A DNA stretch of 64,000 nucleotides, from positions 416,001 through 480,000 of the forward strand of contig OZ251997.1 in NCBI GenBank assembly GCA_965247095.1, given 5' to 3'. Below the pieces are notes generated by a model. The model was given only the letters and a program-made list of their open reading frames with translations. It ran no database searches and was not told the DNA's origin. Source of the DNA: Candidatus Multivorans sp. (GTDB lineage: Bacteria; Acidobacteriota; Thermoanaerobaculia; Multivoradales; Multivoraceae). This document shows positions 4,283 through 23,806 of this stretch, in pieces; the first letter of the stretch is position 1, and every line of letters begins with the position of its first letter. Both the position numbers and the translations under genes were made by a program.

Positions 4283-4356
4283 ACCGGTCGAAGCGCAGCC
4301 TGCGCGGCAGCTATGATCACGGCAGGCAGTTGAACACGGTGGTTGGAGGGCAGGCA

Positions 4357-5445: not shown

Positions 5446-5508
5446 TCGGTTCGGCGTTTCGCTGAGCGCGTTGCGCCGCCTTTTGCGGACGCGGGCGAGC
5501 GTCCTGCG

Positions 5509-5898: not shown

Positions 5899-5899
5899 C

Positions 5900-6187
5900 T
5901 CAGTCTCGTGCCGCCTCCCGGCGTCGCTCGGCGATGAAGGCGTCGACTTCGCTCCCCGATGAACTTGTGCCGTGCTTCCGGGCAAGGGCCTGGGCGCGGG
6001 CGACTGCCGCGTCCACCGCCGTTTCCACGGTTGTTATCCGGATCGTGTCGCCTTCGAGATCGAGGATGACCTTCTGTCGAGGCTGAAAACCCAATGCCGC
6101 GCGAAAATGGGCTGGTACTACGAGCCGGCCTGCGGAGTCGATGATGGTGGAAGTCTGTGCGGGAGCGGGTGTGGGATCATCTGCCAT
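5900..6187 (-). CDS. AbrB/MazE-family antitoxin
   Basis: IDSAGRLVVPAHFRAALG AbrB motif; C-terminal VDAFIAERRREA; directly upstream of the PIN toxin. Confidence 0.85.
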   Translation of the reverse strand: MADDPTPAPAQTSTIIDSAGRLVVPAHFRAALGFQPRQKVILDLEGDTIRITTVETAVDAAVARAQALARKHGTSSSGSEVDAFIAERRREAARD

Positions 6188-6237
6188 AGCGCAGGAGTCT
6201 ACCATTGTGGCGCAGAATGGGAGGGTGCTCGGCTGTA

Positions 6238-6312
6238 CCACGGGAGTGAGAGTAGTGGCCAGTCGCTGGGGCCAACGGTCAGCACGGCGGAGGGACGGAC
6301 AAAGGTGATCAC
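6238..6312 (-). pseudogene. 5' relic of a fourth ABC-2-type permease paralog
   Basis: GTG-initiated VITFVRPSAVLTVGPSDWPLLSLPW aligns with MITVLRLSAVLIGGPRYWLLPLLPLPW of the intact paralogs; similarity then stops. Confidence 0.7.
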
Positions 6313-6361
6313 GCCGTCGCTCCGCCGTGCGTTGCCCGTATCGGCGGGTCGGTCGGCCCGG

Positions 6362-6658
6362 CTACACGCAGATCGTCATGCTCCGGAAGGTCAGGTGCAT
6401 CCCGACGGCGGTCAAGAAGGGGGAGCCAAGAGCCTGGCCGACGGCCGTAAGGAGCGCTCCGGCGACCGAGTCGGTCCTGCAACTGTGGCTCCGCGCTCCT
6501 CCAGCCACTCTCGTCAGGTCGGTGACCGTGAGCTGGTCGAGGCCATCGTGGCCGATGGTCGAGGTGCCGCCCGCCATCACGGCGTCAGGCGGTGTGGCGA
6601 AGGAAGCGCCGACGCTCAATACAAGGGCGATCGATGCAGTGGCTAGGAATCTCGTCAT
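6362..6658 (-). CDS. Small secreted bacteriocin-like precursor B (Sec signal + double-Gly-like leader + Cys-bounded core), 98 aa
   Basis: RBS GAAAGGA before ATG; MTRFLATASIALVLSVGASFA | ...GLDQLTVTDLTRVAGG | ARSHSC...TICV; paralog at 8844-9146. Confidence 0.75.
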   Translation of the reverse strand: MTRFLATASIALVLSVGASFATPPDAVMAGGTSTIGHDGLDQLTVTDLTRVAGGARSHSCRTDSVAGALLTAVGQALGSPFLTAVGMHLTFRSMTICV

Positions 6659-6731
6659 GTCCAGTGGTCCTTTCGGTTGTAGAGGGTTGGGGGTAGCCAG
6701 GTGGTGGAGGCCGCTGTCCGCGGCTCTCGAG

Positions 6732-6764
6732 CCACCTATGGACCAAGACGGAATCGGCGCGGCT
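6732..6764 (-). promoter_or_regulatory. Conserved motif upstream of precursor B (putative promoter/operator)
   Basis: Minus strand AGCCGCGCCGATTCCGTCTTGGTCCATAGGTGG; near-identical to 9300-9334. Confidence 0.5.
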
Positions 6765-6861
6765 CCGTTCGTCTCGGTCACTTCGGTCCGAGCCGGCAGG
6801 GTCGTGTCCTTGCCTTGCTGTGAGCATGAGCCGCCCGACCGGAGGAGCCCGGGAAGCGGGC

Positions 6862-7551
6862 TCAGCCGCTGAGCATCTGCTCGCGGCGCTCCGCACGGGC
6901 GAAGGTCAGGGCGACGATGGCGGCGATGATGAGGGCAATGCCTATACGGTTCTGGACGGCCATGGTGAGCAACTGCTCGGCGTCGCCCCCTTTCACGGCG
7001 AGCGGGTTCCACAATGGCGAGATGCGCGGCTCGACCGAGAGGTATGCCATTCGAAGGTTCGGGGCGAGTAGTGCCATGGTTGCCATTGCGCCGGTGACCT
7101 CGCTTCGGAAGAGGGTGGCGAAACCCATCGCTGCTACCAGGTAGAAAGCGGCTCCCTGCGCCGTGCCGTAGATGGTCTGAACAACTGGAAAGGAAGTGAA
7201 GAAAGCAAAGGTAAGCACCGCCGTCGGCGTCAGACTTGCAAACAGGATCAGCCCTGCGGCAGCGAGTTTTCCGGTCCATACGCGACGGGTGCCGCCGGGT
7301 ACGGTGTAGGCGATCTCCAGGGTGCGCTCGTCGAGTTCGCCGGCGATGATCCGGCCGCCCAGGAAGACGGCGAGAACCGCGACCGGCGCACCAATCAGGG
7401 TGTTCTGTGCGTCGGCGGGCTCGAAGTTGGGCCGAAGCCCGGAGATGAGCAGTATCGCCTGAATTCCCAACCACGGCAGGGGCAGCAGCGGCAGCAGCCA
7501 GTAACGCGGGCCCCCGATCAGCACGGCGGAGAGACGGAGAACGGTGATCAT
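6862..7551 (-). CDS. ABC-2-type transporter permease, paralog 3
   Basis: 229 aa, about 6 TM segments, II.GELDERTLE ABC-2-like motif; close paralog of 7710-8399 and 9406-10098. Confidence 0.85.
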   Translation of the reverse strand: MITVLRLSAVLIGGPRYWLLPLLPLPWLGIQAILLISGLRPNFEPADAQNTLIGAPVAVLAVFLGGRIIAGELDERTLEIAYTVPGGTRRVWTGKLAAAGLILFASLTPTAVLTFAFFTSFPVVQTIYGTAQGAAFYLVAAMGFATLFRSEVTGAMATMALLAPNLRMAYLSVEPRISPLWNPLAVKGGDAEQLLTMAVQNRIGIALIIAAIVALTFARAERREQMLSG

Positions 7552-7709
7552 GCCGGAGCTCGGTCACCGGTCGCCTGGGCCGGCCAGAGGTAGCCGTCCC
7601 CGACCCGTCCGAGGCCATGGCTCTCGATGACCGGTGTAGTGCCCGCCACGACCGAGTTGGGCGGTACAGCGACAGAGGGGCAGACACTCAAGACAAGTGG
7701 CGACTCCTG

Positions 7710-8399
7710 CTAGCGGCTGAGCATCTTCTCGCGACGCTCCGCGCGAGCGAAGGTCAGGGCGACGATGGCGGCGATGGTGAGCGCGATGCCGATGCGGTTC
7801 TGGATGGTCATGGCGAGCAACTGCTCGGCGTCGGCTCCTTTCACGGCGAGCGGGTTCCAGAACGGCGAGATGCGCAGGTGCCCGCCGAAGCCGGTCACAG
7901 AGCCGTTCAAGCCGAATAGCGCAATCGTGACCAAGGCACCGCTCACCTCGCTGCGGAACAGCGTGGAGAAACCCATCGCCGCGGCTAGGTAGAAGCTGGC
8001 TCCTTGGCCAGCACCGTGGAGGGTCTGGACGACCGGAAACGCGGTGAAGAAGGCGAACGCCAGAACAGTCATCGGGATCAGGCTGCCAAGCAGGATCAGG
8101 CCTGCGGCGGTTAGTTTCCCCCACCAGACCCGATGGGCGCCGCCCGGGACGGTGTAGGCGACTTCAAGGGTGCGCTCGTCGAGTTCGCCGGTGATGATCC
8201 GGCCGCCGAGAAACACAGCGAGGATCGCTACTGGCGCACCGATCAAGGTGTTCTGTGCAGCGGCGGGTTCGAAGCCGGGACGGCCGGTGAACAGCAACAG
8301 CACCGCCTGAAGGCCTAGCCAAGTCAGTGGCAGCAGAGGTAGCAGCCAGTATCTTGGCCCTCCGATCAGCACGGCGGAAAGACGGACAACGGTTCTCAT
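7710..8399 (-). CDS. ABC-2-type transporter permease, paralog 2
   Basis: 229 aa, ITGELDERTLE motif; close paralog of both neighbours. Confidence 0.85.
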   Translation of the reverse strand: MRTVVRLSAVLIGGPRYWLLPLLPLTWLGLQAVLLLFTGRPGFEPAAAQNTLIGAPVAILAVFLGGRIITGELDERTLEVAYTVPGGAHRVWWGKLTAAGLILLGSLIPMTVLAFAFFTAFPVVQTLHGAGQGASFYLAAAMGFSTLFRSEVSGALVTIALFGLNGSVTGFGGHLRISPFWNPLAVKGADAEQLLAMTIQNRIGIALTIAAIVALTFARAERREKMLSR

Positions 8400-8523
8400 T
8401 GCAGCTCTCCCCCGCGGGTTGCTTGGCCCGACCGGAGGTAGGTGTCTCTAGGCGGCGCGACGCCTCCTTCGCCTTGCATGTAGAGGGTGGTGGGCGGAGG
8501 GACTGGGGTGCAGGTACTCCGGT

Positions 8524-8733
8524 TCAGCATGTCCCGTCGCGACGAGCGGCCATCCTGCCGACGATCCAGAGAGCTGGCAGCGAGAAGAGGGATGCGATGG
8601 CGACGAACAGGACCGGAGAACCGCCGACGAGGGCCAACAGCCGACCGCTCAACCAGCTTCGCCCGAAGGCGCTGCCCGGGGCAGGTCGCAGCGGCCGGTA
8701 GGGGCGGCTTTGTAGGTCCATGAACGTCGCCAT
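8524..8733 (-). CDS. Small membrane protein (69 aa), candidate immunity/accessory peptide
   Basis: RBS GAAGGA before ATG; hydrophobic stretch LLALVGGSPVLFVAIASLFSLPALWIVG followed by a basic tail; directly downstream of precursor A. Confidence 0.5.
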   Translation of the reverse strand: MATFMDLQSRPYRPLRPAPGSAFGRSWLSGRLLALVGGSPVLFVAIASLFSLPALWIVGRMAARRDGTC

Positions 8734-8843
8734 CGAGTCCTTCCAAACAGGAGCGTGATGCGCTATCCGCCCGCCTCTTTCCGGGGCCGAAGCCGGCACC
8801 CGCAATCAGAGAGTCTCATCGAGCGAGACGGCGCCGTTGTTGG

Positions 8844-9146
8844 CTAGACACACACAGCGTCCGCGAGGAACGGACCGGCCAACCCGGCAGCGTGCATGAG
8901 CCCCCTGCCCGTGTAGATCCCTACGAAGACAAAGGCCTCGCCCGTCGTCTCAAAAGCAGCAGTGCAAGCTCCGGACCACCAAGCTGCTCCCATCACGCCG
9001 ACCATCTCGGCATCCGCGAGTTGTTCGAGCCCGGGATTGTCGACGCCCGGATAGTCGCCCGCCACGGCCGTGACAGGCGGTTCTGCGAAGGCGCCGCCGA
9101 CACTCAGTACAAACGCTGCCACTGCGATAGATAGAACTTTCTTCAT
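8844..9146 (-). CDS. Small secreted bacteriocin-like precursor A (Sec signal + double-Gly-like leader + Cys-bounded core), 100 aa
   Basis: RBS GAAAGGA; MKKVLSIAVAAFVLSVGGAFA | ...GLEQLADAEMVGVMGA | AWWSGAC...AVCV; paralog at 6362-6658. Confidence 0.8.
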   Translation of the reverse strand: MKKVLSIAVAAFVLSVGGAFAEPPVTAVAGDYPGVDNPGLEQLADAEMVGVMGAAWWSGACTAAFETTGEAFVFVGIYTGRGLMHAAGLAGPFLADAVCV

Positions 9147-9299
9147 GATTCTTGTTCCTTTCCGTTTCATGGGTTCTTGTTGCCGTCGACCCCTTCGGAG
9201 AGGCCGACGACGCTGGTAGACGGGAAGGTCCTGCGGAAGCCGAGGAGGCTTCGCAGGTCCACCGCCGCGCAGCGCCTTACGGCGTGCAGGGACTGTGGA

Positions 9300-9334
9300 C
9301 CGCCTATAGACCTATGACGGAATTCGGAGCGGCT
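9300..9334 (-). promoter_or_regulatory. Conserved motif upstream of precursor A (putative promoter/operator)
   Basis: Minus strand AGCCGCTCCGAATTCCGTCATAGGTCTATAGGCGG; near-identical to 6732-6764. Confidence 0.5.
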
Positions 9335-9405
9335 TTTTCTGGCGAGGACCCTGAGAGGGGGCTGGGTGGCAGTGGCTGCGTGTCAGGTCGAGGGCGGAAC
9401 CCGGC

Positions 9406-10098
9406 TCAGCCGCCGAGCATCTTCTCGCGGCGTTCGGCGCGGGCGAATGTCAGGGCGACGATGGCGGCGATCGCGAGGGCGATGCCGATCCGGTTCTGGA
9501 CGCTCATCGCGAGCATCTGGTCGGCGTCGGCTCGGTCCACCGAGAGGGGGTTCCAGAACGGCGAGATGCGGAGGGGGTTTTCGCCGAAGCCGGTGATCAG
9601 GCCGTTGAGGCCAAGGAGGCCGGTCGTGGTCAGGGCGCCGGCCACCTCGCTGCGGAACAGGGTGGCGAGCCCCATGGCTGCAACCAGGTAGAAGGTGACG
9701 CCCTGGGCCGCGCCGTAGAGACTCTGGAAGACGGGGAAGGAGGTGAAGAAGGCGAACGTGACGGACGCCATCAAGGCCAGACTGGCGAGTAGCAACAGGC
9801 CGGCTGCGGCGAGCTTGCCGAGCCAGACGCGGTGAGCGCCGCCGGGTACGGTGTAGGCGATCTCAAGAGAGCGCTGGTCGAGTTCGCCGGTGATGATCCG
9901 CCCGCCCAGGAACACGGCGAGAACGGCCACCGGCATTCCGATCAGTGTGTTCTGGGCGGCGTCACGTTCGAAGCCCGTCGCGGCGCCGGCCAACAGCAGG
10001 ATCGCCTGCACGGCTAGCCACAGTAGCGGCAGCAGGGGCAGCAACCAGTAGCGCCGCCCTGCCAGCAGCACCGCGGACAGACGCAGCACGGCGATCAC
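9406..10098 (-). CDS. ABC-2-type transporter permease, paralog 1
   Basis: 230 aa; GTGA overlap with the stop codon of the upstream RND-ABC fusion; ITGELDQRSLE motif. Confidence 0.88.
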   Translation of the reverse strand: MIAVLRLSAVLLAGRRYWLLPLLPLLWLAVQAILLLAGAATGFERDAAQNTLIGMPVAVLAVFLGGRIITGELDQRSLEIAYTVPGGAHRVWLGKLAAAGLLLLASLALMASVTFAFFTSFPVFQSLYGAAQGVTFYLVAAMGLATLFRSEVAGALTTTGLLGLNGLITGFGENPLRISPFWNPLSVDRADADQMLAMSVQNRIGIALAIAAIVALTFARAERREKMLGG

Positions 10099-13000
10099 GT
10101 CGGGGCTCTGCCGCGCGCCGCCTGCGCCAGCCAGAGGTAGCCGTCCTCGAGCGTGGGTTCGACTGGTTCGGCCCGCCGATCGGGGCGGTCGGCAGCCAGC
10201 ACGCGCAGGCGGCTGCTGCCGTCGGGTTCCGGTTGGCGATCGGCGAGCACGGACGCCTCGGGAAGCTCCGGCTCCTCATCTCCGGGCGCCGTCCATGACC
10301 AGACACGGCCTTCGGCCTCTCGGGACAGCGCCGCCGGCTCGCCGTCGAACACCATGCGGCCGCCGGTGAGCACCAGTACGCGCTCGCAGGCCACCGCCAC
10401 GTCCTCGACGACGTGGGTCGAGAAGAGGACGATGCGGTCCTTGGCCAGGCGCGAGAGCAGGTTGCGGAAGCGGACGCGCTCGCGTGGGTCGAGGCCGACG
10501 GTCGGCTCGTCGACGACGATGATCGGCGGCAGGCGCAACAGCGTGCGGGCCACCGCGACCCGCTGCCGCATGCCGCCGGAGTAGCCGCCGATCGGTTCGT
10601 CCGCTCGCTCGTCGAGTCCGACTTCGCGCAGCAGGGAGCCGATGCGCTCCGCTCGCTCCGACGCCTCGATCTGGTAGAGCGCGGCGTAGTACTCGAGGTA
10701 CTGCCGGGCCGTCAGGCGCGCCGGCAGGCCGGCGTCCTGCGGCAGGTAGCCGACGTAGCGGGCCAGCCGTTTCCGTATCCTGAGCAGGGGCACGCCGCCC
10801 AGCGTGATCCGGCCGCGGGTCGAATCCAGAATGCCGGTCACCTGGCGGAGCAGGGTCGTCTTGCCCGCGCCGTTCGGACCCAGCACGCCGACCATGCCCC
10901 GCTCGACATCGAAGCTCACCGCGGCCAGCGCCTTCACCGTGTCGATCGGCAGATCGAGACCGAAGATCCGGGTTGCTGCCGCCCGCCAGAGGCGGATCAA
11001 CATGCCGCGCCAGCCACGGGTGCGCCGGCGGCGGGTTGACCGCTGCTCCCGGCGCACCGTCTCGAGACGGGCCGTGCGACGTCCGAGTTGGATCAGAAGG
11101 ATGATCGTGGAGAGGATGGCCACGACGATGAACCCGCCCACCGCGGGCTCGGTGGCGAGAGCCGGACCGACCAGGCCCGCGAGAAGCGCCCAGGGCAGCA
11201 GGGCGGACAGAACGCCCTCGATGCCGCCCGGCTCGACTCGACCAAGCGCGTCGGCGCGGCCGCGGGCACGCCGGACCTCGGTCAGCAGCCGGGAAGCGAT
11301 CAGCAGTGCGGCAATCCAGGCGCCCAGTTGGATCAGGTCGGCACGGAACCTCATGGCCAGGGCGACCGCGCCGGCGAGCAACAGGAGCAAGGGCAGGATG
11401 CGGTCCCGCGCGTCGGCGGGGTGGAAGGCCTGACCGCCGCGGTCGACGACCTGCTTGGCGAAGTCGGTCGATGCCCGCAGCGCCCGGCGCACCGGCCCCG
11501 GCCGGCCGTAGGTCTTGCGCAGGTGACGGACCACCAGCCGGGGCGGTCCGGCGTCGGCCTCCGGTTCCGGTGTCGGCGGTTTTGGCACCAGCCACACGGT
11601 GAGCCCGAGCAGGGCGCCGGCGATGAGCACGGTCGTCGTGACCTGCCAGAACATGGACTCGATCACGCCGAGAACGAACAACGGGGCGGTGGCCGCGATC
11701 ACCGCGCCGAGCCAGGTCAGAACCACCCAGGGTCCGACGCGGCTGAAGACATCGTCCAGGCGCCGCAGAAAGACGTAGCCGACCGGGATGACGAGCAGCG
11801 TGAGCACGGTCGAGGTCAGAAGACCGCCGATCACCAGGGTCGCGAAGGGCGGCCAGAGCTCGTTCTCGCGTCCCGTGGCGATGGCCAGCGGTGCGAGCGC
11901 CGCGATCGTCGTCGCGCTGGTCATCAACACCGGACGCGCGCGCTCGCGAACCGCGGCCAGGGCGGCGGCGCCCGCACTCCAGCCGGCGCCGAGTACCCGT
12001 TGCTGCATCCGGTCGACGAGCAGAACCGCCGGGTTCACCGCCAGCCCGAGGAGGACGAGCGCCCCGAGCAGCGCCATCGGATCGAGCCCGATGCCGGAGA
12101 ACATCAGCGCCCACAGCGAGCCGAGCAGGGCGAGCGGCAGCGCGAGCAGAACAAGGATCGGCAGGGTCATCGACTCGAACGCCACCGCCAGAACCAGGAA
12201 CACGAGCATCACGACCGGCGCCAGGACGCGCCGGAACCAGCTCGTGTTCTCGTCCGAGCGGTCGAGCTCGATTGTCGTTCCGGGCGGACGGTGGATGCTG
12301 GCAAGCGCCTCGTCCAGGTTGCGGTCGAATTCCAGCCGCGCCGGTCCGCCGCTTGGTACGTCGGACGAGACGCTGTAGATGACCTCCCGCTCGCGGCGGC
12401 CGTTGTGGTGTGTGATCACCGGGGAAGCCGGCGCGCGGCGCACCTGCGCCAAGGCGGCTACTGGCAGGACGCCAGCGCTCGTGGAGACGCGGAGCCGGGA
12501 CAGGCCGCTCAGCGACGCCTCGCGCTCGAAACTGCTGCCGTCCACGACCCGGGCGTCACTGGGTCGGTTCTCCGCGCGCTGGACGACGATCGGAAGCTCA
12601 CGGCCGTTCGGAAGCGGGAAGCCGCTGTTGATGCTCGTACCCTCACGGCCGGCGAGACTCAGCATCGGCAGCACATCGTCGAGCAGGACGCCGAAGGTGT
12701 CGAAGGCGCGACGGTTCGGGCTGACGTGGATCTCGTCGGGGCCGGGCCGTGAGGCTAGAAAGGCGCCGCTGATCCCCTCGATCTCCTTGAGCCGCTCGGC
12801 GACCTCCGTGGCCAGACCGGTCAACTGGTCGTTGTCGTTTCCGGACAGGATGACCCGTTTCGGCCCTGCCCCGAGCAACTCCTGGGCGCCGCCGCCACCG
12901 CCGGGACCGCCGCCCCGACCGCCCGGGCCTTCGCCTTCGCCGGGTCGCAGAATCTCGGTACCGGCGCGCCGGTTCGCGGCCCGGCGTACGAGCTGACGGA

Positions 13001-14912: not shown

Positions 14913-14925
14913 GTCGCTTTCCGGT

Positions 14926-17900
14926 TCAGGCGCCGGACGGGTCGCGGCGGCGCCGGGTCAGTCGCATCGAGTCGAGTATCAGGTAGAGGCAGGGCAGCAC
15001 GAGGAGCGAGCCGACGGTGGAGGTGAGGATGCCGCCGATGATCGTGTACGCCATCGGGCTTCGCAGTTCCGCGGCTTCGCCGGCGCCTATGGCAAGCGGC
15101 GCCAGGACCAGGACAGTGGTCAGGGTCGTCATCAGGATCGGCCGCAGGCGGATCGCGGCGGCCCGGGCCAGTGCGGTGCGCCGCTCCATGCCGGCGGCGA
15201 GCAGCCGGCGGGCGGTGGCAATCAGGAGGACCGCGTCGTTCACCGCCACGCCCGCGAGCACGATGAGGCCGAGCAGCGCCATGACACCGACCGGCCGTCC
15301 GAGGAAGCCGAGGGTGCAGGCGACGCCGACCAGGGCCAGGGGGATCGAGAACAACACCGTGAGCGGTTGGAGCAGGGACTCGAACGTTCCGGCGAGGACC
15401 ATCAGCACGAGAACGAGCGCCAGCAGCCCCGCCCAGCGCAGTTCGCCGACGGCGCGCTCGCGTTCCTCTTCCTCGCCGGCGAGACGGACGATCAGACCGG
15501 AGGGCAGGTCGGTTGCTGCGATCGTCTCGCCGGCTGCCGCGATCGCGCGCGGGTAGTCGCTGTCGTCGGCGACCCGGGCGGTCACCTGGGCGACGCGGCG
15601 CTGGTCGCGGCGGAAGACCTCGCGGGCGCCCTCGGCGGGGACGAAGCGGGCGACTTGGCCGAGGGCGAGGTCCGCGCCGTCGTTGCTCGTGAAGCGCAGT
15701 TTGGCGAGTTCCTCGGGCCGCGGCTGGGGCAGAGAGAGGACGACGTGGCGCTCCTCGTCTCCAGTCGAGAGCAGGGTGACCCTGCGGCCGTCGAGTGCGG
15801 CCTGGAGCACCCGGGCGATCGTTTCCAGGCCGACGCCGAGGCCGTCGGCCATCGCGCGGTCGAGTTCGATCCGCAGTTCCGGCGGTCCGCCCTCGAACGA
15901 GGAGCGGACGTTCCAGAGTTCGGATCGCACAGCCATCGCGTCGCGCAACCTGGTGGCCGCCAGGCGCAGGTCGGGCAGCGACTGGCCCGCGATCTCGACC
16001 ACGATCGGCGGTCCCGCGGAGCCGAGCGCGCGCGATAGCGCCGACGCCCCGACCTCCCACTCGATCTCGGTATCCGGCAGGTCTTGGAAGTTGGGCTGCA
16101 GGGCGGTCACGATCTGGCCGCCGGTCGGCCCTTCGGCGGACAGCCGGACGAGCAGGCGGGCCGTGTTCTCCTCAGTCAGCTCCGTGGTCACGAGCCGATC
16201 GTCCTCGGGCAGGCGGCCGACCTCGGCCTGGATCGCCTGCAGGTGCTCGCCGGCAGCCTGCCTGACCGCCTCTTCCAGCGTCGCCACGGCGCCGGCGGTG
16301 GCCTCGACGCGCTGGCCGGGCGGGCCGACCATGCGCACCGAGAACTGCCGCGGGTCGGCAGGCGGCAGCAGTTCGCTGCCCAGTCCGAGCAGAACGTAGA
16401 CGGCGCCGGCGGCGGCGAGCACCGCCACTCCGACGACCAGCCAGCGAAGCTGAAGCAGGCCGAGAACCAGGCGCTCGACGGCGCCGAAGGCCCAGCCCAG
16501 CGGACGCGCTTCGTCTTCGTCAGCGTCCACCGGCATGCTGATGGATGCCGCCGCCGATGCGTCGGCCGTGGGCTCGGGCGCGGCGGTTTGCGGTTTGGCG
16601 CGCGGCAGGAGCCAGCGCGACAGGGCCGGAATCAGCATGATCGCGACCGCCAGGGAGGCGCCGAGGGAGGCGGTGACGGTGAAGGCGATGCCTTCGATCA
16701 GGCGCGCCGCCAGACCCTGGACGAAGAGGACGGGCAGGAAGACAACGCACGTAGTGAGCGTCGAGGCGGCAATCGCGCCCGCGACCTCGCCCGTGCCCCT
16801 GGCGGCCGTGTCGGCTGCCGAGGCGCCGGGGCGGTGGCGGCGGTGGATGCTCTCCACGACGACGATCGCGTTGTCGACCAGCATGCCGGCGCCGAGCGCC
16901 AGCCCGGCCAGGGTGATGATGTTCAGAGAGTGCCCCCACAGCCGCATCGCGAACAGCGCGACGAACAGGGACACCGGCACCGCTGAAGCGACGACCAAGG
17001 TCGGACCGAGGGAGCGCAGGAACAGCGCCAGCACGACGACCGCCAGGGCGATGCCGATCAGCGCCGCGTTCGTCAGGTCGTCCATCGCGTCCTCGATCAG
17101 CGCGGCGTCGTCGTTGACCATCGAGACGAGGACCCGGGGCAGGTCGCGCTCGAGGTCGTCGAGCGCCGCGCGCACGGTGCGCGAGACCTCCACGGTGTTG
17201 GCGCCCGCCTCCTTGAACACCTGCAGGCCGACGCCCTCCTGGCCGTTCACCCGCACCAGGTGGTCGATCTCGGCGTGTGCGAGTTCGACCGTGGCGACGT
17301 CGGAGACCCGGATCGGCTGACGGACCTGCCGGCCTCCCTCCGCCTGCTGGGTGCGGTAGCGCACGACGACCCGCTCGACATCGCGGGAGTTCCGGAACCG
17401 GGAGATGCCTCGAACGAGATAGACCTGACCGCCGTCCTCCAGGGTGCCGGCGTCGATGTCGACGTTCTCGGCCACGAGGCGTTGCTCCAGTTGGTCCAAG
17501 GTGACGCCGAACGCCTGCAGGCGGTAGCGGTCGACGCGTACGCGGACCTCCAGTTCCCGCCCTCCGAGGACCCGCACCTCGGCAACGTCGGCGAGCTGCT
17601 CCATGGCCGGCGCCACCTGACGGCGCGCCAGGCGGCGGAGCTCGGCGAGATCAGGTCCTTCCGGCTCGGCGGCCAGCCCAAGGGTGATCACCGGCGACTG
17701 CCTCGGATCGAGTTGGCGGACCAGGACCTCGTCGACTTCGGGGTCGGCCGCGACCGGATTGACCGCCTTCTGCACGTCGATCAGCGCCAGGTCCATGTCG
17801 GCGTCCCAGTCGAAGCGGACGGTGGCGATCAGGCGGCCGGTGCGGGCGACCTGGTGCACCTCGCGGAGGCCGCGCACCGTGAACAGGCGCTGCTCGACCT

Positions 17901-18120
17901 GCTCGCCGTAGAGCCGCTCCATCTCGGTCGGCGGCCGGTCGCCGGAACGCACGGCGACGACGATGGTCGGCGAACGCAGGTCGGGCAGGAGGTCGATCGG
18001 CAGTTCACGCCACGACATCCAGCCCACCAAGGCGAATGCCAGGGCGGTGACGGTGACCGCTACGGGCCGGCGCGCAGCCAGGCGGGCGGGGCCGAAGGTC
18101 TCACCGGATGTTCGAGTCAT
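14926..18120 (-). CDS. RND efflux transporter permease subunit
   Basis: LPIDLLP, GMLVDNAIVVVE, RLRPILMTT, PMAYTIIGG; 1064 aa. Confidence 0.93.
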   Translation of the reverse strand: MTRTSGETFGPARLAARRPVAVTVTALAFALVGWMSWRELPIDLLPDLRSPTIVVAVRSGDRPPTEMERLYGEQVEQRLFTVRGLREVHQVARTGRLIATVRFDWDADMDLALIDVQKAVNPVAADPEVDEVLVRQLDPRQSPVITLGLAAEPEGPDLAELRRLARRQVAPAMEQLADVAEVRVLGGRELEVRVRVDRYRLQAFGVTLDQLEQRLVAENVDIDAGTLEDGGQVYLVRGISRFRNSRDVERVVVRYRTQQAEGGRQVRQPIRVSDVATVELAHAEIDHLVRVNGQEGVGLQVFKEAGANTVEVSRTVRAALDDLERDLPRVLVSMVNDDAALIEDAMDDLTNAALIGIALAVVVLALFLRSLGPTLVVASAVPVSLFVALFAMRLWGHSLNIITLAGLALGAGMLVDNAIVVVESIHRRHRPGASAADTAARGTGEVAGAIAASTLTTCVVFLPVLFVQGLAARLIEGIAFTVTASLGASLAVAIMLIPALSRWLLPRAKPQTAAPEPTADASAAASISMPVDADEDEARPLGWAFGAVERLVLGLLQLRWLVVGVAVLAAAGAVYVLLGLGSELLPPADPRQFSVRMVGPPGQRVEATAGAVATLEEAVRQAAGEHLQAIQAEVGRLPEDDRLVTTELTEENTARLLVRLSAEGPTGGQIVTALQPNFQDLPDTEIEWEVGASALSRALGSAGPPIVVEIAGQSLPDLRLAATRLRDAMAVRSELWNVRSSFEGGPPELRIELDRAMADGLGVGLETIARVLQAALDGRRVTLLSTGDEERHVVLSLPQPRPEELAKLRFTSNDGADLALGQVARFVPAEGAREVFRRDQRRVAQVTARVADDSDYPRAIAAAGETIAATDLPSGLIVRLAGEEEERERAVGELRWAGLLALVLVLMVLAGTFESLLQPLTVLFSIPLALVGVACTLGFLGRPVGVMALLGLIVLAGVAVNDAVLLIATARRLLAAGMERRTALARAAAIRLRPILMTTLTTVLVLAPLAIGAGEAAELRSPMAYTIIGGILTSTVGSLLVLPCLYLILDSMRLTRRRRDPSGA

Positions 18121-18159
18121 CGTGCCGGGCTCCGGTGGTCAGAGCTGCCGAATCGGTTC

Positions 18160-19260
18160 TTATTGGGAAACCCGGACGCGGGTGCCGTCGGTCAGGGTTT
18201 CGAGGCCGCGAACGACGACCCGCTCGCCGAGCTCCAGCCCCTGGCGAATCTCGGTGATCTCGTCGTCGCCGAGACCGAGAACGACTTCGCGCCGCACCGC
18301 GCGCTGGCCGTCGAGGACGAAGACGACGCGCCGGCCGCCGCGCTCGGTAACCGCCTCGCGCGGAATGACGGGGACGTCGTTGCGCTGCTCGACGACCAGG
18401 GTCACTTCGACGAACATGCCCGGCCGCAGCAGGCCGCCGGGATTGCGCACCGCCACCTCGGCGCGGAAGGTGTGGGTGACCGGGTCGACCTCGGGGGACA
18501 GGCGGACGACCCCGCCTTCGAACGTCTGGCCCTCCCAGGCGAAGTGCCTGAGCCGGCCCCGCTGCCCGGGGTGGACCCGCGCCAGTTCGGGGCCCACGAG
18601 GTCGATGTCGGCGATCAGGGAGGCGACCGGAGCGATCCGGGCCACCTGGAAGCCCCGGGAAACGAGCTGGCCGTCGGCGATCGGCATGCCGTTCGGGTCG
18701 CGGGCGAGTTCCATCAGCACGCCGCCGATCGGGGTCAGCATCTTCGCGCGGTCCTCGGTAAGCAGGCTCTGCTCCCAGGTCGCCTTCGCGTCTTCGAGCG
18801 CGATCTCGGCGCGGCGCAGCTCTTCGGCACTGATCAGTTCCTGCTCGAACAGCTTGGCGCGGGCGTCGCGTTCGGCCTCGGCGCCCAGGTAGGCTTGGTG
18901 GGTCGCCTCGACCCGGGCCGCGAGCCGTGCGTCCTCGCCGGTGACCTCCGCGATCATCTGCTCGGGGACGACGCGGTCGCCTTCGGCCAGCCGGTCGCCG
19001 GAACCGTTGCGGCCGATCAGCAGTCTCCCCGGCGTCTCGACCTGCAGGACGATGCTCTCGGCCGCTCGCAGAGTGCCGGTGGCGACGATCAGATCCTCGA
19101 CGTTGCCGGTTTCGACCTCGGCCGCGGTGACCGGCACCAGGAAGTCGACGGGGTCCGTGCTGCCGCCGCCTTCGCAGGCGACGATCACGGCGCAGGCGGC
19201 TATCGCGAGGCCCGCATGCCGGAGGCCGGCGATCGGGCGGGAGGGCTGCCGCGGGCTCAT
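18160..19260 (-). CDS. RND periplasmic adaptor (membrane fusion protein), lipoprotein
   Basis: ATGA overlap with the upstream gene; lipobox-like VIVAC; PEVDPVTHTF, LRPGMFV, IPREAV, GL..GERVVVRG. Confidence 0.9.
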   Translation of the reverse strand: MSPRQPSRPIAGLRHAGLAIAACAVIVACEGGGSTDPVDFLVPVTAAEVETGNVEDLIVATGTLRAAESIVLQVETPGRLLIGRNGSGDRLAEGDRVVPEQMIAEVTGEDARLAARVEATHQAYLGAEAERDARAKLFEQELISAEELRRAEIALEDAKATWEQSLLTEDRAKMLTPIGGVLMELARDPNGMPIADGQLVSRGFQVARIAPVASLIADIDLVGPELARVHPGQRGRLRHFAWEGQTFEGGVVRLSPEVDPVTHTFRAEVAVRNPGGLLRPGMFVEVTLVVEQRNDVPVIPREAVTERGGRRVVFVLDGQRAVRREVVLGLGDDEITEIRQGLELGERVVVRGLETLTDGTRVRVSQ

Positions 19261-22200
19261 AGCCCCGCGCCCCCGGTCTCGGCGCGGCCGGCGGCGGCGC
19301 TGTTGTCGAGCCGCACGAAGCGCACCGCGTCCGCGGCGACCGCTTTGCCGGAGGTCTCGTCGCTCAGGACCAGTTCGGTCGGGCCGCCGGCCAGATCGAA
19401 GTCGCCCAGCACCGCCCATCCCGCGCCCGCGGCCGCGGCGTCGAAGTCGATCGGCCGGGAGACGCCGCCGTTCTGCAACTCCAGGTCGTAGGTGCCGAGA
19501 GCCAGCCCCAGGTTCACCGAGACCCGTACGCCGCCGTCGTCGTCCCCTCCTCTTCGTGGTGCGTCTCCACCTCCGTCGCCGACCCGCACTTCCCGACGCA
19601 CGGCCGTGGCGCCGGCTGGCAGGGGCGAGAGCGACGGCACGTGCAGTTCGACCCGCCAGCGGCCGTCTGCCGGCAACTCCGTCCGGTAGATCGCGCGGCT
19701 GTTCCCTTCGCCCGCGGGCGCCAGGGCGGTCGTGCGGCGGTAGCGGCCCCAACTGGTGGGCTGTGCGTAGCGCGACCATTCGGTCGGCGGTCCGCCGAAG
19801 CTCTGGTAGACGAGCAGACCCTGATCCGTCTGGTTCGACGGCGCGAAGAAGCCAGCGAGACCGCCCTGCAGCCGGAAGCCGCCGGCATCCGCTTCATCCG
19901 TCTCGATCGAGAAGCCGGGGTCCAGGTCGTCGACGACGATCATGTCGGTCGTTGACTCGAGGAAGGCGGGCAGCCAGTCGGCCGGCCGCGTGCCGCGCAG
20001 TGGTTCGGCATCGACGATCGTCTCGTTGTTGACGCTCGGCAGATCGATCGGGAACTCCCGGCGGTTCAGCGACAGGTAAGGTGAAGCCAGCATCCTGCCC
20101 GGCACCCTGGAAGTGACCAGACCGAATTCGACGGAGCTGTTTCCCGGGATCAGGGTCGGCTCGCTGGACTCCCAGCGCACGCCGCTCGGTGCGCGGACGG
20201 CGTAGCGGAGCCGGAACAGGCCCGGAGCCTCCTCGCCGTTGTGGACGAAGAGACGGGTCTGGTACTGCGGCAGGCCCTGGTCGTCGTCCGCCAGCCGCAC
20301 GAGTTCGGCGGGGGATACGACGAAGCCCGGCAGGTCGGTCTGGTGGAGGAAGTCGCCGACCAGGCCGGCGAGGTCCAGGCCGGCTTCCTGAGCGGCCCGT
20401 TCGAGGTCGGCGGCGGTGAAGGTCGATCCCCGGTGGTCGCGCATGAGGTTCGCGAGCATCGCGGCGGTCCGTTCCCGGCCGGCGCCGTCCAGAATTGCGC
20501 CGGCAAGGGCCGAAGTCTTCAGATAGAGCGCGTTCAACGCTTTCTTCGGCTCCTCTTCGACGTCCATTTCCGTCAGCGAGGCGCCGAGAACGGCGTCCCA
20601 TACCTCGGGGCGGTCGGTGAGGCTCTGTACGATGGTGCTGGAGACCGAGGAGGCGCCTCCGCCGAGCTGGCTGAAGATGGCGCCCTGCAACACGCTGGCG
20701 ATCGTCCAGCCGAACTCGCGGTCGAACAGGTGGGCCGAGAAGTACGATTCGCCGCCGTTCACCAGCCGGTTCACCAGGTTGTTGCACAGTTCCTCGAGCG
20801 CCAGCGCCTCCGGACCGCGGGCGCCGGTCTGGTACATGAACAGATTGCGGACACCGCCGACCTCCACGTTGCCGCCCGAGAAGTCGTTGCGGAAGAACTG
20901 CTGCAGCCCGGAGGCCTTTGCCCGGGGCAGACCGCCCTCCTGCTCCTCGAACCGCTCCGGGTTGCGGAACAGGAACTCGAAGCGAGCGGTCGGCAGGCTG
21001 CTCTCGCTGAGCAGCAGCATGCCCGGCGGCGCGCGCTCGGTGTCCATCCGCCAGCCGCCGCCGTAGGAGCGCAGGGTCCAGGGAACTTCAACCAGGGTGA
21101 GCTGACGGTAGGGGTAGGGCAGGCCCAGCTCGCGCGCGCTGGTGAAGCGCTCGGCGGCGACTGCCTCGATCTCTTCCCGGGCGTCGGCGAAGAGCTCCAC
21201 GTTTCTCAGATGGCGGGGGTGGAGGAGCAGTTCGATCTCGACGCCCTCGACCTCCGTCGTCCGGCGATCGAACCGACCGGCGACCAGGGCCGCTTCGGGC
21301 ACGACTGCCACGGGTGCGAACCGTTGCCGTTCGCCGGCCGGCTCGGCTCTGCCTGGCCCGGCGACCGTCCAGCCCGAGGGGGCGCCGACCTCCAGGTCGA
21401 GTTCGAAGAAGTCTCTGGGACGCCTTCGCGGATCGGTGAGGCCGACCGACGTGCCGGGGCGCGGCATCCAGGCCAGCGCGGCGGGCAGCGCGACGTAGCG
21501 GCGCTCCGCAAAGCCGTTCAGGGCGCCGAGAAGGATGATCTGGGCGTCCTGGAACTTGATCCGGTTGAAGTCGATCGCGGAATCCAGGTACGCGAAGCGA
21601 AGGTCGGGCCGTCCGTGGGCGCGCAGGCGAAGGTCGACGGCCTCGCCCGCGGCCGGCGAGCGCCCGAGGTCGACCTCGAGCAGGCCGTCGCGGTGGTTGA
21701 ATCCGAGCGTCGCGCCGGCGGTATCCTCAATGGCGTCGACCTGGAGGCCGGGGTTCAGGCTGAAGAGAGCCTGCGAACCGCCGGCGGCGAGGAACCGGAC
21801 GTTGACATCGAGGGTCAGGCGGCCGCGCGGTGCGATGTCGACGGCGCCGTGGATCTGTTCCAGGTCAAGGACCGGTTCGCTCTGGCGTGCCGTGTGGGCG
21901 ATGCGCCAGTCGTCGATTTCGTCGACCCGGTTGCCGGCCGTGACCGCGGCGGCTGCGATCGTTCCGATGGCCGCCGCCAGGAGGCCGGCGCCGGCGGTGG
22001 CCCACAGGCGTCGCCGGGTGTCGTCGAGCCGGGGATGGACGGCGACGGCGACCGCAAGCATCCCAACGGCCAGCGCCGCGACCGTGGCCCGGTTCATCAA
22101 GTTGAAGGCGGTCCAGATCTGGGGCGCGACCTCGGAAGGATTGGTGCCGAAGCCGCCGTTGATCGCCAGCATCGGCAGGACGTAGGTCGGCACGCGGAAG

Positions 22201-22808
22201 GAGAGAAGCATCGGCCCGATGGCCAGCCCGAGGCCCAGGAGCGCGGCGACCAGGCGGTTGCCGCTCAGGAGTGACGCCACATGGACGAAGGCGATGGTCA
22301 GAGCCAGCGCCGGCAGCGCCTCGGTCAGCAGGTAGGCCCAGACGGAACTCCAGATCGCCGGTTCGCCCACGTACCAGCCGAGCGCCACGCCGAGATGGCC
22401 GATGCCCTGGATGATCATCATGCCGATGAAGGCGACGCCCCAGATCATGATCAGGGCGCCGAGGAAGCGGCCGAGGACGAGTTCGGCGTTCGAATAGGGC
22501 CGGCTGTCCAGGACCTCGATGACGCGGTCGCGCCGGTCCCGTGCGCGCAGATCGAAGGCCAGGAACACGACGCCGATCGCGAGAACCATCGTCTGCGTCG
22601 AAGCCATCTGAGCGAGCAGGAACTTCGGGCTCATCGCGCCGACCGTCGCCGAGAACGACGAAAAGAGGCCGTGGATAACCCAGTAGTAGCCGTACGACAC
22701 CAAGCCGACGAGGAGTGCGAGGCCCGAGAACAGCCAGAAGCGGAACAGCCGGCGGAGGGTGCGCATCTCGGCGCGGGCCAGCGACCAGACGGCGGCGAGT
22801 GAGATCAC
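19257..22808 (-). CDS. ABC-2-type permease fused to an M1-aminopeptidase-like ectodomain (no HExxH seen) and a C-terminal beta-sandwich module
   Basis: N-terminal ARAE..TL and RDRRDRVIEVLDSRP.S..ELVLGRFLG permease motifs; LPYPY..LTLVEVP and YLKT...FT.ADL...DLAGLV.DFL...LP M1-like segments; C-terminal AVAADAVRFV. Confidence 0.75.
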   Translation of the reverse strand: MISLAAVWSLARAEMRTLRRLFRFWLFSGLALLVGLVSYGYYWVIHGLFSSFSATVGAMSPKFLLAQMASTQTMVLAIGVVFLAFDLRARDRRDRVIEVLDSRPYSNAELVLGRFLGALIMIWGVAFIGMMIIQGIGHLGVALGWYVGEPAIWSSVWAYLLTEALPALALTIAFVHVASLLSGNRLVAALLGLGLAIGPMLLSFRVPTYVLPMLAINGGFGTNPSEVAPQIWTAFNLMNRATVAALAVGMLAVAVAVHPRLDDTRRRLWATAGAGLLAAAIGTIAAAAVTAGNRVDEIDDWRIAHTARQSEPVLDLEQIHGAVDIAPRGRLTLDVNVRFLAAGGSQALFSLNPGLQVDAIEDTAGATLGFNHRDGLLEVDLGRSPAAGEAVDLRLRAHGRPDLRFAYLDSAIDFNRIKFQDAQIILLGALNGFAERRYVALPAALAWMPRPGTSVGLTDPRRRPRDFFELDLEVGAPSGWTVAGPGRAEPAGERQRFAPVAVVPEAALVAGRFDRRTTEVEGVEIELLLHPRHLRNVELFADAREEIEAVAAERFTSARELGLPYPYRQLTLVEVPWTLRSYGGGWRMDTERAPPGMLLLSESSLPTARFEFLFRNPERFEEQEGGLPRAKASGLQQFFRNDFSGGNVEVGGVRNLFMYQTGARGPEALALEELCNNLVNRLVNGGESYFSAHLFDREFGWTIASVLQGAIFSQLGGGASSVSSTIVQSLTDRPEVWDAVLGASLTEMDVEEEPKKALNALYLKTSALAGAILDGAGRERTAAMLANLMRDHRGSTFTAADLERAAQEAGLDLAGLVGDFLHQTDLPGFVVSPAELVRLADDDQGLPQYQTRLFVHNGEEAPGLFRLRYAVRAPSGVRWESSEPTLIPGNSSVEFGLVTSRVPGRMLASPYLSLNRREFPIDLPSVNNETIVDAEPLRGTRPADWLPAFLESTTDMIVVDDLDPGFSIETDEADAGGFRLQGGLAGFFAPSNQTDQGLLVYQSFGGPPTEWSRYAQPTSWGRYRRTTALAPAGEGNSRAIYRTELPADGRWRVELHVPSLSPLPAGATAVRREVRVGDGGGDAPRRGGDDDGGVRVSVNLGLALGTYDLELQNGGVSRPIDFDAAAAGAGWAVLGDFDLAGGPTELVLSDETSGKAVAADAVRFVRLDNSAAAGRAETGGAGL

Positions 22809-23806
22809 TGTCGGGCCTCCTCTCCGGAGGTCGTGTCGCCTGCGTCCGCGTCCGCCGATCCTTCGCCGCCATCGGACCGAGCGTTGTGGGCGGCTTTGTT
22901 CCCGCCGAAGTGCTCATCGGTCACCAGGGCTTCGGCACGACCGCGCGCGACCATGAAGGCGAGGTATCCCTCCTCGAGGGTCGGCGACGAGGCGATCCGC
23001 GCTCGTGCCGGTACGCCGCCGGGCGCCGCGACGGCGCGGTAGGTCGTTTCGTTCATGCTGACGGTGCGCGAGACGATCTCGAAGCCGCCTTCGGGCTGCG
23101 GCGCGGATGTCGGCAGGGTCAGCTCGAACACCTGGCCCTGGGCGCGCTCAAGCAGTTGGGTGGGGGAGCCGCGAAAGACGATCTTGCCCGCGTCGAGCAG
23201 GGCGAGGTCGTTGCAGCCGGTGCCCAGGTCGGCGACGATGTGGGTCGAGAGGATGATCGTCCGCTCGCGGCCGAGGCTCGCCATCAGTTGGCGGAAGCGG
23301 AGCCGCTCCTCCGGGTCCAGACCGACCGTGGGTTCGTCGACCACCAGCAGGCGGGGTTGGTGGATCAGCGCCTGGGCGATGCCGAGGCGGCGGGTCATGC
23401 CGCCTGAGAGCTTCTTCACCTTGCGGTGCGCGACCTCGCCCAGGCCGACGCTGTCGAGGACGGAATCGACGCGGGCCCGGCGGGCGCCGCGGTCGTCCAG
23501 GCCGGAGAGCTCGGCCAGGGTGTCGAGGACCTCCTCCACGCGGTGCAGACGCCAGGCGCCGAATTCCTGCGGCAGATAGCCGAGATGTGCGCGGACGCCG
23601 CGCCGCTGCGAGACCACGTCGTGGCCGAAGACGGTTGCCGTCCCGCCGCTGGGCTTGAGCAGCGTGCAGACGATCCGCATCAGGGTGCTCTTGCCGGCGC
23701 CGTTGGGGCCCAGCAGGCCGAAGAGACCCGCGCCGATCTCCAGATCGACGCCGTCGAGAGCTACTGTGCCGCCGCGATAGACGTGGCGGAGGCCGCGCGC
23801 GGCCAC
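22805..23806 (-). CDS. ABC transporter ATP-binding protein
   Basis: GPNGAGKST, LSGGM, LVVDEPT, STH; true start may be the in-frame CTG at 23818, which follows GGAGG. Confidence 0.93.
   Translation of the reverse strand: MAARGLRHVYRGGTVALDGVDLEIGAGLFGLLGPNGAGKSTLMRIVCTLLKPSGGTATVFGHDVVSQRRGVRAHLGYLPQEFGAWRLHRVEEVLDTLAELSGLDDRGARRARVDSVLDSVGLGEVAHRKVKKLSGGMTRRLGIAQALIHQPRLLVVDEPTVGLDPEERLRFRQLMASLGRERTIILSTHIVADLGTGCNDLALLDAGKIVFRGSPTQLLERAQGQVFELTLPTSAPQPEGGFEIVSRTVSMNETTYRAVAAPGGVPARARIASSPTLEEGYLAFMVARGRAEALVTDEHFGGNKAAHNARSDGGEGSADADAGDTTSGEEARQ

Follow-up and report, generated by a model that had tools for sequence, protein, structure and literature searches.

A conserved RND-ABC fusion pump and a genus-level array of peptide and permease cassettes in Candidatus Multivorans

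When genes for small, bacteriocin-like peptides follow those of an efflux machine, is the whole a dedicated peptide secretion and immunity system, or a pump with a different primary substrate onto which peptides have been grafted? The question is raised by a run of genes, all on the minus strand and spanning positions 23806 to 6258, in a 64,000-nucleotide stretch of DNA (positions 416,001 to 480,000 of contig OZ251997.1; hereafter the window, G+C ~70%) from Candidatus Multivorans, a member of the Acidobacteriota and of the family Candidatus Multivoraceae. The genome around the window is a single contig of 4.62 Mb and is 98.96% complete. An earlier note, made from the letters of the window, had read the entire locus as a candidate peptide secretion/immunity system. 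The comparisons presented here point instead to two layers of different reach: a conserved six-gene pump, centred on a natural fusion of a resistance-nodulation-division (RND) transporter with an ATP-binding cassette (ABC) ATPase, and an array of peptide precursors and paralogous permeases that appears to be an add-on of the window's genus-level group.

The core genes follow one another in this order:

22805..23806, minus strand: ABC ATPase 1, 333 amino acids (aa), DrrA/GldA-like; PF00005 at 103.8 bits, best NCBIfam models drrA and GldA, both below their cut-offs.
19257..22808, minus strand: giant ABC-2 permease, 1183 aa, with about seven transmembrane (TM) helices; it also has a periplasmic domain of M1-aminopeptidase fold that lacks HEXXH, beta domains and Golvesin_C.
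18160..19260, minus strand: periplasmic adaptor (membrane fusion protein, MFP), a probable lipoprotein; TIGR01730 RND_mfp scores 157 bits (cut-off 94.9).
14926..18120, minus strand: RND transporter 1 (RND1), 1064 aa; PF00873 at 662.8 bits, full length.
10095..14912, minus strand: the fusion, 1605 aa, of RND transporter 2 with six extra hydrophobic helices and an ABC ATPase domain; PF00873 and PF00005.
9406..10098, minus strand: core small ABC-2 permease P1, 230 aa, with a GTG start; PF12679 at 23.0 bits, below cut-off.

The tight spacing of these genes, to which the earlier note had drawn attention, is borne out: the first ATPase and the giant permease, the giant permease and the adaptor, and the stop of the fusion and the start of P1 each overlap by 4 nt, and RND1 is separated from the fusion by 13 nt. 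The true start of the adaptor is the ATG at 19260, where both the start and a lipobox-like signal were read from the translation. The note had also remarked on what the locus lacks, and indeed no outer-membrane factor (OMF), C39 peptidase or enzyme for ribosomally synthesized and post-translationally modified peptides (RiPPs) was found among the locus open reading frames (ORFs) scanned; the OMF family PF02321 is matched at six places elsewhere in the window's genome, none of them inside the window.

Proton-driven RND pumps and ATP-driven ABC transporters are treated as separate efflux engines, and the fusion joins the two in one chain, with PF00873 covering residues 8-1049 (465.2 bits, model positions 4-1020) and PF00005 covering residues 1331-1471 (94.7 bits). 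Among the 120 homologues listed for a query made of its linker and ATPase part, lengths of 1500-1900 aa are seen in 103 and the combination of ACR_tran with ABC_tran in 115, at identities to the query that reach down to 52% and in organisms labelled Acidobacteriota, Deltaproteobacteria and Pseudomonadales. The ATPase domain displays the motifs GPNGAGKT, LPQD, YSGGMRQR, IIVVDEPT and STHVVED, and in 22 aligned fusions the Walker A, Q-loop, signature, Walker B and H-loop positions are invariant or nearly so, as are many residues of the linker. The linker query matches 19 of 401 sampled Acidobacteriota genomes, belonging to 11 of 228 genera, mostly in open frames of ~1590-2340 aa, with three matches in frames of 450-1150 aa on fragmented assemblies. 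In an AF2 model of the last 565 residues (pLDDT 64.8, pTM 0.40), from which the helix count of six was taken, the linker leads into the ATPase domain and a C-terminal beta domain. Together, the shared length, domain content and motifs indicate that the RND-ABC fusion, which the earlier note had singled out, is genuine and conserved. Free-standing forms composed of the six helices and the ATPase did not turn up among the 8000 candidates scored, where the four shorter linker matches are RND-bearing fragments, every one; split forms may exist beyond that sample. A text search of listings and abstract openings returned no publication that deals with Candidatus Multivorans, with a naturally occurring RND-ABC fusion, or with precursors that combine a signal peptide with a double-glycine leader, and the database names of these proteins are generic.

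Some further fusions were seen along the way. Some genomes of the genus hold a second copy (L034:6388-8988 and L035:12816-15417; 80% identical in the linker/ATPase part), followed by no permease match and by only a peptide fragment covering profile positions 1-68. Three homologues of 1840-1876 aa, P0063-P0065, additionally bear the sigma-70 region 4 domains PF04545 and PF08281, which points to one more fusion or to gene calls that were merged.

The two RND parts, which share 32% identity, also depart from the textbook proton path. At the positions where TM4 of the solved RND protein 8zxs_A carries D-D and its TM10 carries K-N, the residues of the fusion are D402-N403 and N960-P961, invariant in the 22 aligned fusions, and those of RND1 are D-N and N-D, so that at the positions compared neither protein presents the classical relay of a TM4 Asp-Asp pair and a TM10 Lys, which we take to be that of AcrB; the TM11 Arg of the same comparison is kept.

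The second unusual component is the giant permease. Its sequence matches Golvesin_C (37.1 bits against a cut-off of 31.6) and, below threshold, ABC2_membrane_2 (21.2 bits against 27.2), and it retrieves nothing from the PDB. Its AF2 model, built on an alignment of 33 homologues (pLDDT 85.1, pTM 0.81), is matched by Foldseek to IRAP (E 2e-17) and to the lanthipeptide leader peptidase EryP (PDB 7v9p; E 2.5e-15), and by VIA to a two-domain M1 enzyme from Deinococcus (PDB 6iff) with Z 22.9 and a root-mean-square deviation of 3.8 A over 391 aligned residues. On the strength of this model, residues ~307-866 adopt an M1 aminopeptidase fold, in agreement with the "M1-like" label of the earlier note. 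At the sequence level PF01433 (M1) gives no match at E values up to 5, and the HExxH motif is absent from the window's protein and from all 36 locus homologues (0/36), so the predicted domain is most likely a non-catalytic binding module. In the ESM Atlas the protein leads to Bacteroidota Golvesin_C proteins, with a weak Peptidase_M1 lead at 0.84 (19% of the cluster members carry the family).

How far does this machine extend beyond the genus, and does it travel with peptides? The entire order of ABC ATPase, giant permease, MFP, RND, fusion and one small permease is found in Desulfatiglans (L071) and in a gammaproteobacterium (L072), the two distant loci with enough flanking sequence, and in L070, L074, L075 and L076 those core parts that fit their contigs are present. 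The gene order thus indicates a core conserved in Desulfatiglans, Gammaproteobacteria and other Acidobacteriota. All seven distant loci (L070-L076) have a single permease and no peptide match, and the same peptide-less state recurs in 7 of the 40 loci of the genus-level group described below; the pump is therefore not intrinsically a peptide system, and the proposal that the machine itself is one of peptide secretion and immunity does not hold. In L071 a 549-aa lipoprotein-like ORF whose N-terminal sequence was judged by eye to be OMF-like lies directly after the small permease (15573-17222, plus strand).

What follows P1 in the window is the array:

8844..9146, minus strand: peptide precursor A, 100 aa, core type 6, assigned from the family alignment.
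8345..8432, minus strand: duplicated junction (relic of the ATPase 3' end plus permease start) before P2; repeat families D3 and D4.
7710..8399, minus strand: accessory permease P2, 229 aa, of the accessory clade; candidate cognate of peptide A.
~7590..7709, minus strand: relic of a peptide gene, leader part only, recognised by a weak protein match and the peptide hidden Markov model (HMM).
7497..7584, minus strand: the same duplicated junction before P3; repeat families D3 and D4.
6862..7551, minus strand: accessory permease P3, 229 aa, of the accessory clade.
6362..6658, minus strand: peptide precursor B, 98 aa, core type 2, a terminal "orphan".
6258..6345, minus strand: remnant 5' end of a fourth permease, preceded by the ATPase-tail junction; repeat family D4.

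Direct-repeat analysis finds the junction of ATPase tail and permease start four times (families D3 and D4, the latter with four copies), and its presence before P2 and P3 implies that the duplicated unit comprised an ATPase tail, a permease and a peptide. Eleven of the twelve elements that the earlier note had listed for the locus are real, among them its relic of a fourth permease, whose 6258-6345 translates as the first ~24 permease residues. Its list did not include the peptide relic at ~7590-7709, which matches peptide residues 16-55 weakly at the protein level and HMM positions 12-45 with E 2e-5. The remaining element, a "small membrane ORF" (8396-8746 or 8524-8805), we reject as a gene: of the loci searched, just the window and the two relatives nearest to it contain the frame, whose 3' end consists of an ATPase-tail relic. 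A scan of 5800-10300 for promoters and terminators returned no promoter-like and one terminator-like site, with no excess over shuffled sequence. One metagenome contig of run X10 joins 7697 to 9408 through 13 other letters, with 45 letters on its shorter side; as a single contig at 90% likeness, from a metagenome and amid repeats, it is a hint only of an array lacking the peptide A/permease 2 cassette, and the other contig joints on 5400-10400, from four runs, are supported by fewer than 31 to 35 letters on a side or by a depth of about 3.

To place the array we compared 40 loci from the genus-level group (Candidatus Multivorans and related Acidobacteriota), namely the window and L027-L069 with fusions at least 69% identical to the window's, leaving out L041, L045, L049 and L055, which lie on short contigs with no downstream sequence; these loci are relatives and not independent samples. 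Their states are as follows:

29 of 40 loci: at least two intact permeases, each locus with at least one full-length peptide.
7 of 40 loci: one permease and no HMM peptide.
1 of 40 loci (L046): one permease and one partial copy.
1 of 40 loci (L054): rearranged.
2 of 40 loci (L034 and L035): second fusion copy without a permease.

Exactly two permeases is the commonest state (21 of the 29 multi-permease loci). The variable island always lies between P1 and the flank gene on the array's other side, P1 directly abutting the latter in L042, L050 and L052, and holds zero to three cassettes, each a precursor of ~100 aa with a paralogous permease downstream; broken copies are seen in the relatives L029, L043, L044 and L046. 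In a protein search of 61 genomes, the permease turned up in every one of the 36 further species sampled from the genus, as a rule in two tandem copies, and in none of 24 genomes from other families of the order. This distribution indicates that the array is an add-on of the genus-level group. In the single-permease locus L064, a degenerate peptide-like frame, recognised by eye and missed by the peptide HMM, follows P1 (15586-16476, plus strand); it has a signal-like start and two cysteines ~40 residues apart, and runs on without a stop.

The peptides themselves have the make-up of a leader-plus-variable-core family, consistent with their earlier description as bacteriocin-like. Fifty full-length precursors align as one family, each with a basic start, a hydrophobic run of 12-15 residues, small residues at -3/-1, an invariant A21 and then E-P-P, followed after a spacer by the leader motif L-x-Q-L-x-D-x-D-M-x-x-V-x-G, in which G53 is invariant, and by a hypervariable, glycine-rich core of 36-45 residues bounded by two invariant cysteines. 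At 50% identity the cores fall into 14 groups, six of them with at least three members. Peptides A and B are paralogues with 34% identity; orthologues of A are 82-87% identical in the closest relatives, those of B 74-94% in the five closest and 53-57% in two more distant ones, and the purine-rich stretch AAAGGAAC stands a few bases before the ATG of peptide A. The N-terminus resembles the opening 28 residues of a cytochrome c1 chain of solved structure (E 0.012), presumably its signal sequence, and a lipoprotein-signal model matches 11 of 30 family members below its cut-off. Also below threshold, and again of 30 members, Bacteriocin_IIc matches one, ComC two, BlpC two and cerein 7B one. The family is small, with 32 matches at E <= 1e-3 and 22 at <= 1e-10 among 1.84 billion representatives; one distant match, a protein with five "ELSDADLEAIAGAG"-type repeats, fits the leader part of the profile, and other distant members end their leaders in the canonical "...VVGG" or "...VLGG".

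Silent sites tell how the cores have come to differ. Between the window and L029 synonymous divergence (dS) is 0.05 in the leader and saturated in the core, and between the window and L027 it is 0.13 and 2.7, respectively. Near-identical leaders thus stand next to cores that are unrelated even at silent positions, which argues that cores are replaced by recombination and not by point mutation. Among cores of the same type the ratio of nonsynonymous to synonymous divergence (dN/dS) is ~0.25-0.35 for some of the close pairs, and other pairs range from 0.5 to more than 1.

The permeases are better conserved. P1, P2 and P3 are mutually 72-73% identical, each with six hydrophobic segments by hydropathy reading and with sub-threshold scores against the ABC-2 model PF12679 (23.0, 17.2 and 25.0 bits, respectively, against a cut-off of 27.2); a profile search of PDB sequences yielded nothing. 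In a quick maximum-likelihood tree of 81 copies (IQ-TREE), the 36 accessory permeases without exception group in a single clade (SH-aLRT 95), which is nested among P1s of this group, and their branching does not follow that of P1. Ten comparisons of close accessory copies gave dN/dS values of 0.14-0.37 (medians 0.28 for accessory copies and 0.22 for P1; against orthologues, 0.23-0.32 for P2 and 0.14-0.20 for P3), which speaks for purifying selection; neutral evolution of permeases 2 and 3, which the earlier note had named as an outcome that would undo its proposal, is thus not what is observed, and the extra permeases appear to be functional paralogues. Variation among accessory copies is highest at residues ~160-178, read from hydropathy as the outer end of TM5 and the next loop, and the most conserved segment is loop 69-94, a putative ATPase contact in a topology inferred by eye. 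A relic of a permease start directly follows the terminal peptide in the window and in ten other loci (L027-L029, L031, L039, L044, L047, L053, L056 and L063), where it should be borne in mind that the relic query also matches other permease starts.

Do peptide and permease vary together, as expected if each peptide had its cognate permease? With cores typed and accessory permeases clustered at 20% distance, the following associations emerge:

Core type 5: downstream permease of cluster C in 5 of 5.
Core type 6: downstream permease of cluster D in 3 of 3.
Core type 1, first subtype: downstream permease of cluster B in 4 of 4.
Core type 1, second subtype: downstream permease of cluster A in 6 of 6.
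Core type 4, a near-identical trio: downstream permease of cluster F in 3 of 3.

For locus pairs whose P1s differ by more than 5%, the downstream permeases are close in 22 of 49 pairs with the same core and in 15 of 346 with different cores; the same test on the upstream accessory permease gives 4 of 31 and 8 of 70. Core type therefore appears to follow the downstream permease and not the upstream one. Cassettes can also differ where P1 is identical: the peptides of L036 and L037 are 55% apart and their P2s 25%, and those of L039 and L056 53% and 33%. A complex prediction with two copies of permease 2 and residues 22-100 of peptide A scored 0.00 and counts neither way.

In light of these results, the reading of the array that we consider best, tentatively and with confidence somewhat short of even, is that it encodes bacteriocins, each with a cognate permease. 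The pump would be assembled from the two RND paralogues as a mixed trimer, with the fused ATPase domains dimerising under a P1 dimer, and its ABC part would lift a hydrophobic substrate from the inner membrane into the RND/adaptor duct, served in turn by an outer-membrane channel encoded elsewhere. The peptides would reach the periplasm by Sec, oxidise to a closed loop and be clipped at the leader, to act as secreted, disulfide-closed, membrane-active competition peptides of a bacteriocin-like kind. The permease after each of them would be its cognate specificity or self-protection subunit, in export, self-protection or both. With no other ATPase gene in the array, such a permease would have to rely on the RND-tethered ATPase or on the first ATPase, and with it could move the peptide out of the membrane of the producer and into the pump.

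Several observations weigh against this assignment of bacteriocins and cognate permeases. The pump occurs without peptides, hence its primary substrate is something else. Of the supposed double glycine only the first residue is invariant, the next two positions varying among G, A, R, E and K; the locus has no C39 peptidase; no Pfam or NCBIfam model exceeds its cut-off for the peptides, nor does a PDB-sequence family; and the signal of the peptides and the membrane topology were read by eye and not by a dedicated predictor. Pooled over 139 pairs, peptide dN/dS is high (0.62 in the leader and 0.75 in the core). The cognate pairing, which the earlier note had proposed and which the core types support by tracking the clade of the downstream permease, is not favoured over upstream pairing when raw distances are compared: in Mantel tests the correlation of core with downstream permease is r 0.19 (17 of 3000 shuffles as high), and that with the upstream permease is slightly better at r 0.29 (2 of 3000), although the upstream permease is nearly always P1 and thus stands for species background. 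The rank correlation among the 14 pairs whose P1s are nearly identical is 0.19 and not significant, the two pairs with similar cores being those with the two closest permeases. An intact downstream permease is lacking for all nine type 2 peptides and for seven of the eight of type 3 (one of the seven has a frameshifted copy), and such orphans fit a strict rule of one toxin and one immunity gene badly, since a toxin that lacks protection would be expected to be lost, unless the protection is shared. Finally, mere linkage could make a core co-vary with its downstream permease, provided that recombination anchors at the conserved leader and at the conserved 3' end of the permease.

How else might the array be explained? 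The peptides might be exported signals, pheromones or surface/matrix peptides, with the accessory permeases acting as export-specificity subunits and conferring no immunity. We hold this to be rather unlikely: a leader with a variable core is also the format of double-glycine pheromones, as the sub-threshold BlpC and ComC matches (two each of 30) recall, orphan peptides without a permease are tolerated, and the pairing evidence suits export specificity as well as immunity, but no sensor kinase or regulator is present among the locus ORFs scanned, and cores that are glycine-rich and hydrophobic, come in at least six unrelated types and belong to cassettes that turn over between close relatives would be more usual in antagonism than in signalling. 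A little less likely still, in our estimate, is that peptides and permeases are independent neighbours, the permeases being heterodimer partners of P1 or alternatives to it that widen a lipid or xenobiotic range, and the co-variation reflecting linkage at a recombination hot spot. ABC-2 transporters commonly have two different permease genes, which agrees with exactly two permeases in 21 of 29 loci; VapBC genes are likewise gained and lost in the island, and the raw-distance tests are weak. Against such independence, peptide and extra permease are gained and lost jointly, HMM peptides being found in none of the seven single-permease loci and in all 29 multi-permease ones, and the association is with the downstream and not the upstream permease, though both are equally adjacent.

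An account that we regard as improbable denies that the N-terminal stretch is a Sec signal and has double-glycine precursors exported by a C39 ABC transporter encoded elsewhere, with the array permeases serving immunity only. The genome does hold one Peptidase_C39 match, its sole one, at ~2.31 Mb (G000:C1:2307576-2307950, plus strand; 110.9 bits), and distant family members do end their leaders in "...VVGG" or "...VLGG"; this domain, however, is ~1.9 Mb from the locus and unlinked to it, and its open frame, at just 219 aa, is too short for a full C39-ABC exporter. The basic start, hydrophobic run and A21 of the precursors, together with their likeness to the cytochrome c1 chain and to lipoprotein signals, resemble a signal peptide, and the two invariant cysteines suit oxidation in the periplasm. 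That the array is functionless, decaying duplication debris seems highly improbable. Relics of a peptide, of permease 5' ends and of ATPase tails are there, as are broken copies in relatives; yet the intact permease copies have dN/dS values of 0.14-0.37, some same-type cores 0.25-0.35 (others 0.5 to above 1), and the arrangement is kept in 29 of 40 loci.

The preferred account of bacteriocins with cognate permeases can be extended to the whole locus in a bolder form, which we consider unlikely in its entirety: a new envelope machine in which an RND heterotrimer carries two tethered ABC ATPases, so that ATP, alone or with the proton gradient, drives or feeds the RND duct, and which serves in the genus as a platform for interchangeable permease cassettes, each with one self-made, Sec-exported, disulfide-closed peptide, the dead M1 domain being a periplasmic receptor for peptides.

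Among known kinds of system, the locus comes nearest to pumps with paired RND genes, ABC-2 exporters that use adaptors, peptides with double-glycine leaders and polymorphic arrays of toxins and immunity genes. It shares features with each, and several of their defining features are changed or missing here. Like MdtABC-type RND pumps, it has one MFP followed by two adjacent RND paralogues, with the outer-membrane channel supplied in trans; unlike them, its second RND has six extra helices and an ABC ATPase, both RNDs lack the D-D/K arrangement, and two ABC-2 permease genes belong to the same operon. With the ABC-2 systems YbhGFSR and RbbA/YhiI of E. coli, which work with a periplasmic adaptor, and with DrrAB and GldAFG, it shares ATPases that score best against the drrA, GldA and RbbA models (below their cut-offs) and a small, translationally coupled permease with six hydrophobic segments, whereas here the ATPase forms the C-terminus of an RND protein instead of a free subunit and the permease is weakly recognised by Pfam. 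The proximity of a secreted peptide gene to ABC-2-type membrane subunits is reminiscent of LanFEG and BcrAB and of Sec-dependent bacteriocins with ABC immunity, such as lactococcin 972. The lantibiotic-protection ATPase model TIGR03740, however, has a cut-off of 309.75 bits and gives matches of only 119.9 and 105.2 bits (E 1e-34 and 4e-30); the host here is a diderm, and the candidate immunity factor is a lone permease without an ATPase gene of its own.

The peptides recall double-glycine bacteriocins and class II microcins, which are exported by a C39 ABC transporter, an adaptor and TolC, both in the leader L-x-x-L-x-D-x-D/E-M/L-x-x-V-x-G and in the glycine-rich hydrophobic core with its cysteine pair; they differ in the signal-like segment before the leader, the unconserved second glycine, the lack of C39 in the locus and the sub-cut-off model scores. 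In its dynamics the array resembles the orphan cdiA-CT/cdiI modules of contact-dependent inhibition (CDI), Rhs loci and the pneumococcal blp locus: a conserved N-terminal part gives way at a sharp boundary to a recombining C-terminal part, the downstream gene co-varies, orphans and relics lie at the end, and cassette content differs between close relatives. Here, in contrast, the candidate immunity gene is a paralogue of a transporter permease and the array is attached to an efflux machine. The giant permease, lastly, shares the fold of M1 zinc aminopeptidases (EryP, 7v9p; the Deinococcus enzyme, 6iff) over residues ~307-866, but has no HExxH and no Pfam M1 match, and its domain is fused with further beta domains and an ABC-2 membrane domain.

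Three neighbouring features complete the picture. At the end of the array lie a VapB/AbrB-type antitoxin (MazE_antitoxin, E 2e-4; ORF 5900-6241) and a PIN-domain toxin (57.4 bits), together at 5509-6241 on the minus strand; homologues of this pair are present in some related loci and absent from others, and their site is between the array and the flank gene. The flank gene itself (4057-5445, plus strand) has a hydrophobic N-terminal segment and orthologues 79-97% identical in 35 related loci, and gives no Pfam match at E values up to 5. On the other side, divergent from the locus, a gene at 24029-25510 (plus strand) scores 23.5 bits against Cu2_monoox_C (cut-off 23), with cytochrome c and EF-hand matches below cut-off; it is syntenic in 31 related loci, peptide-less ones included, and was not seen upstream in L071 or L072. 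A copper-monooxygenase-like gene beside a pump that handles peptides is suggestive of a periplasmic peptide modifier, and the C-termini of the precursors, which are C-V/A/S/Y and not glycine, count against modification by its product.

A conserved natural RND-ABC protein, in an operon with a second ABC module and a dead-peptidase domain, offers a route to study how substrates are handed to tripartite pumps, and lets one ask whether an RND transporter can couple to ATP. In the genus-level group, the add-on would represent the reuse of such a pump as a chassis for fast-evolving peptide/permease cassettes. If the pairs do prove to be bacteriocins and their immunity factors, they would constitute a new way for diderm bacteria to export peptides and protect themselves, and the family as a whole would provide about a dozen unrelated small peptides, predicted to be closed by disulfides, from an uncultured lineage.

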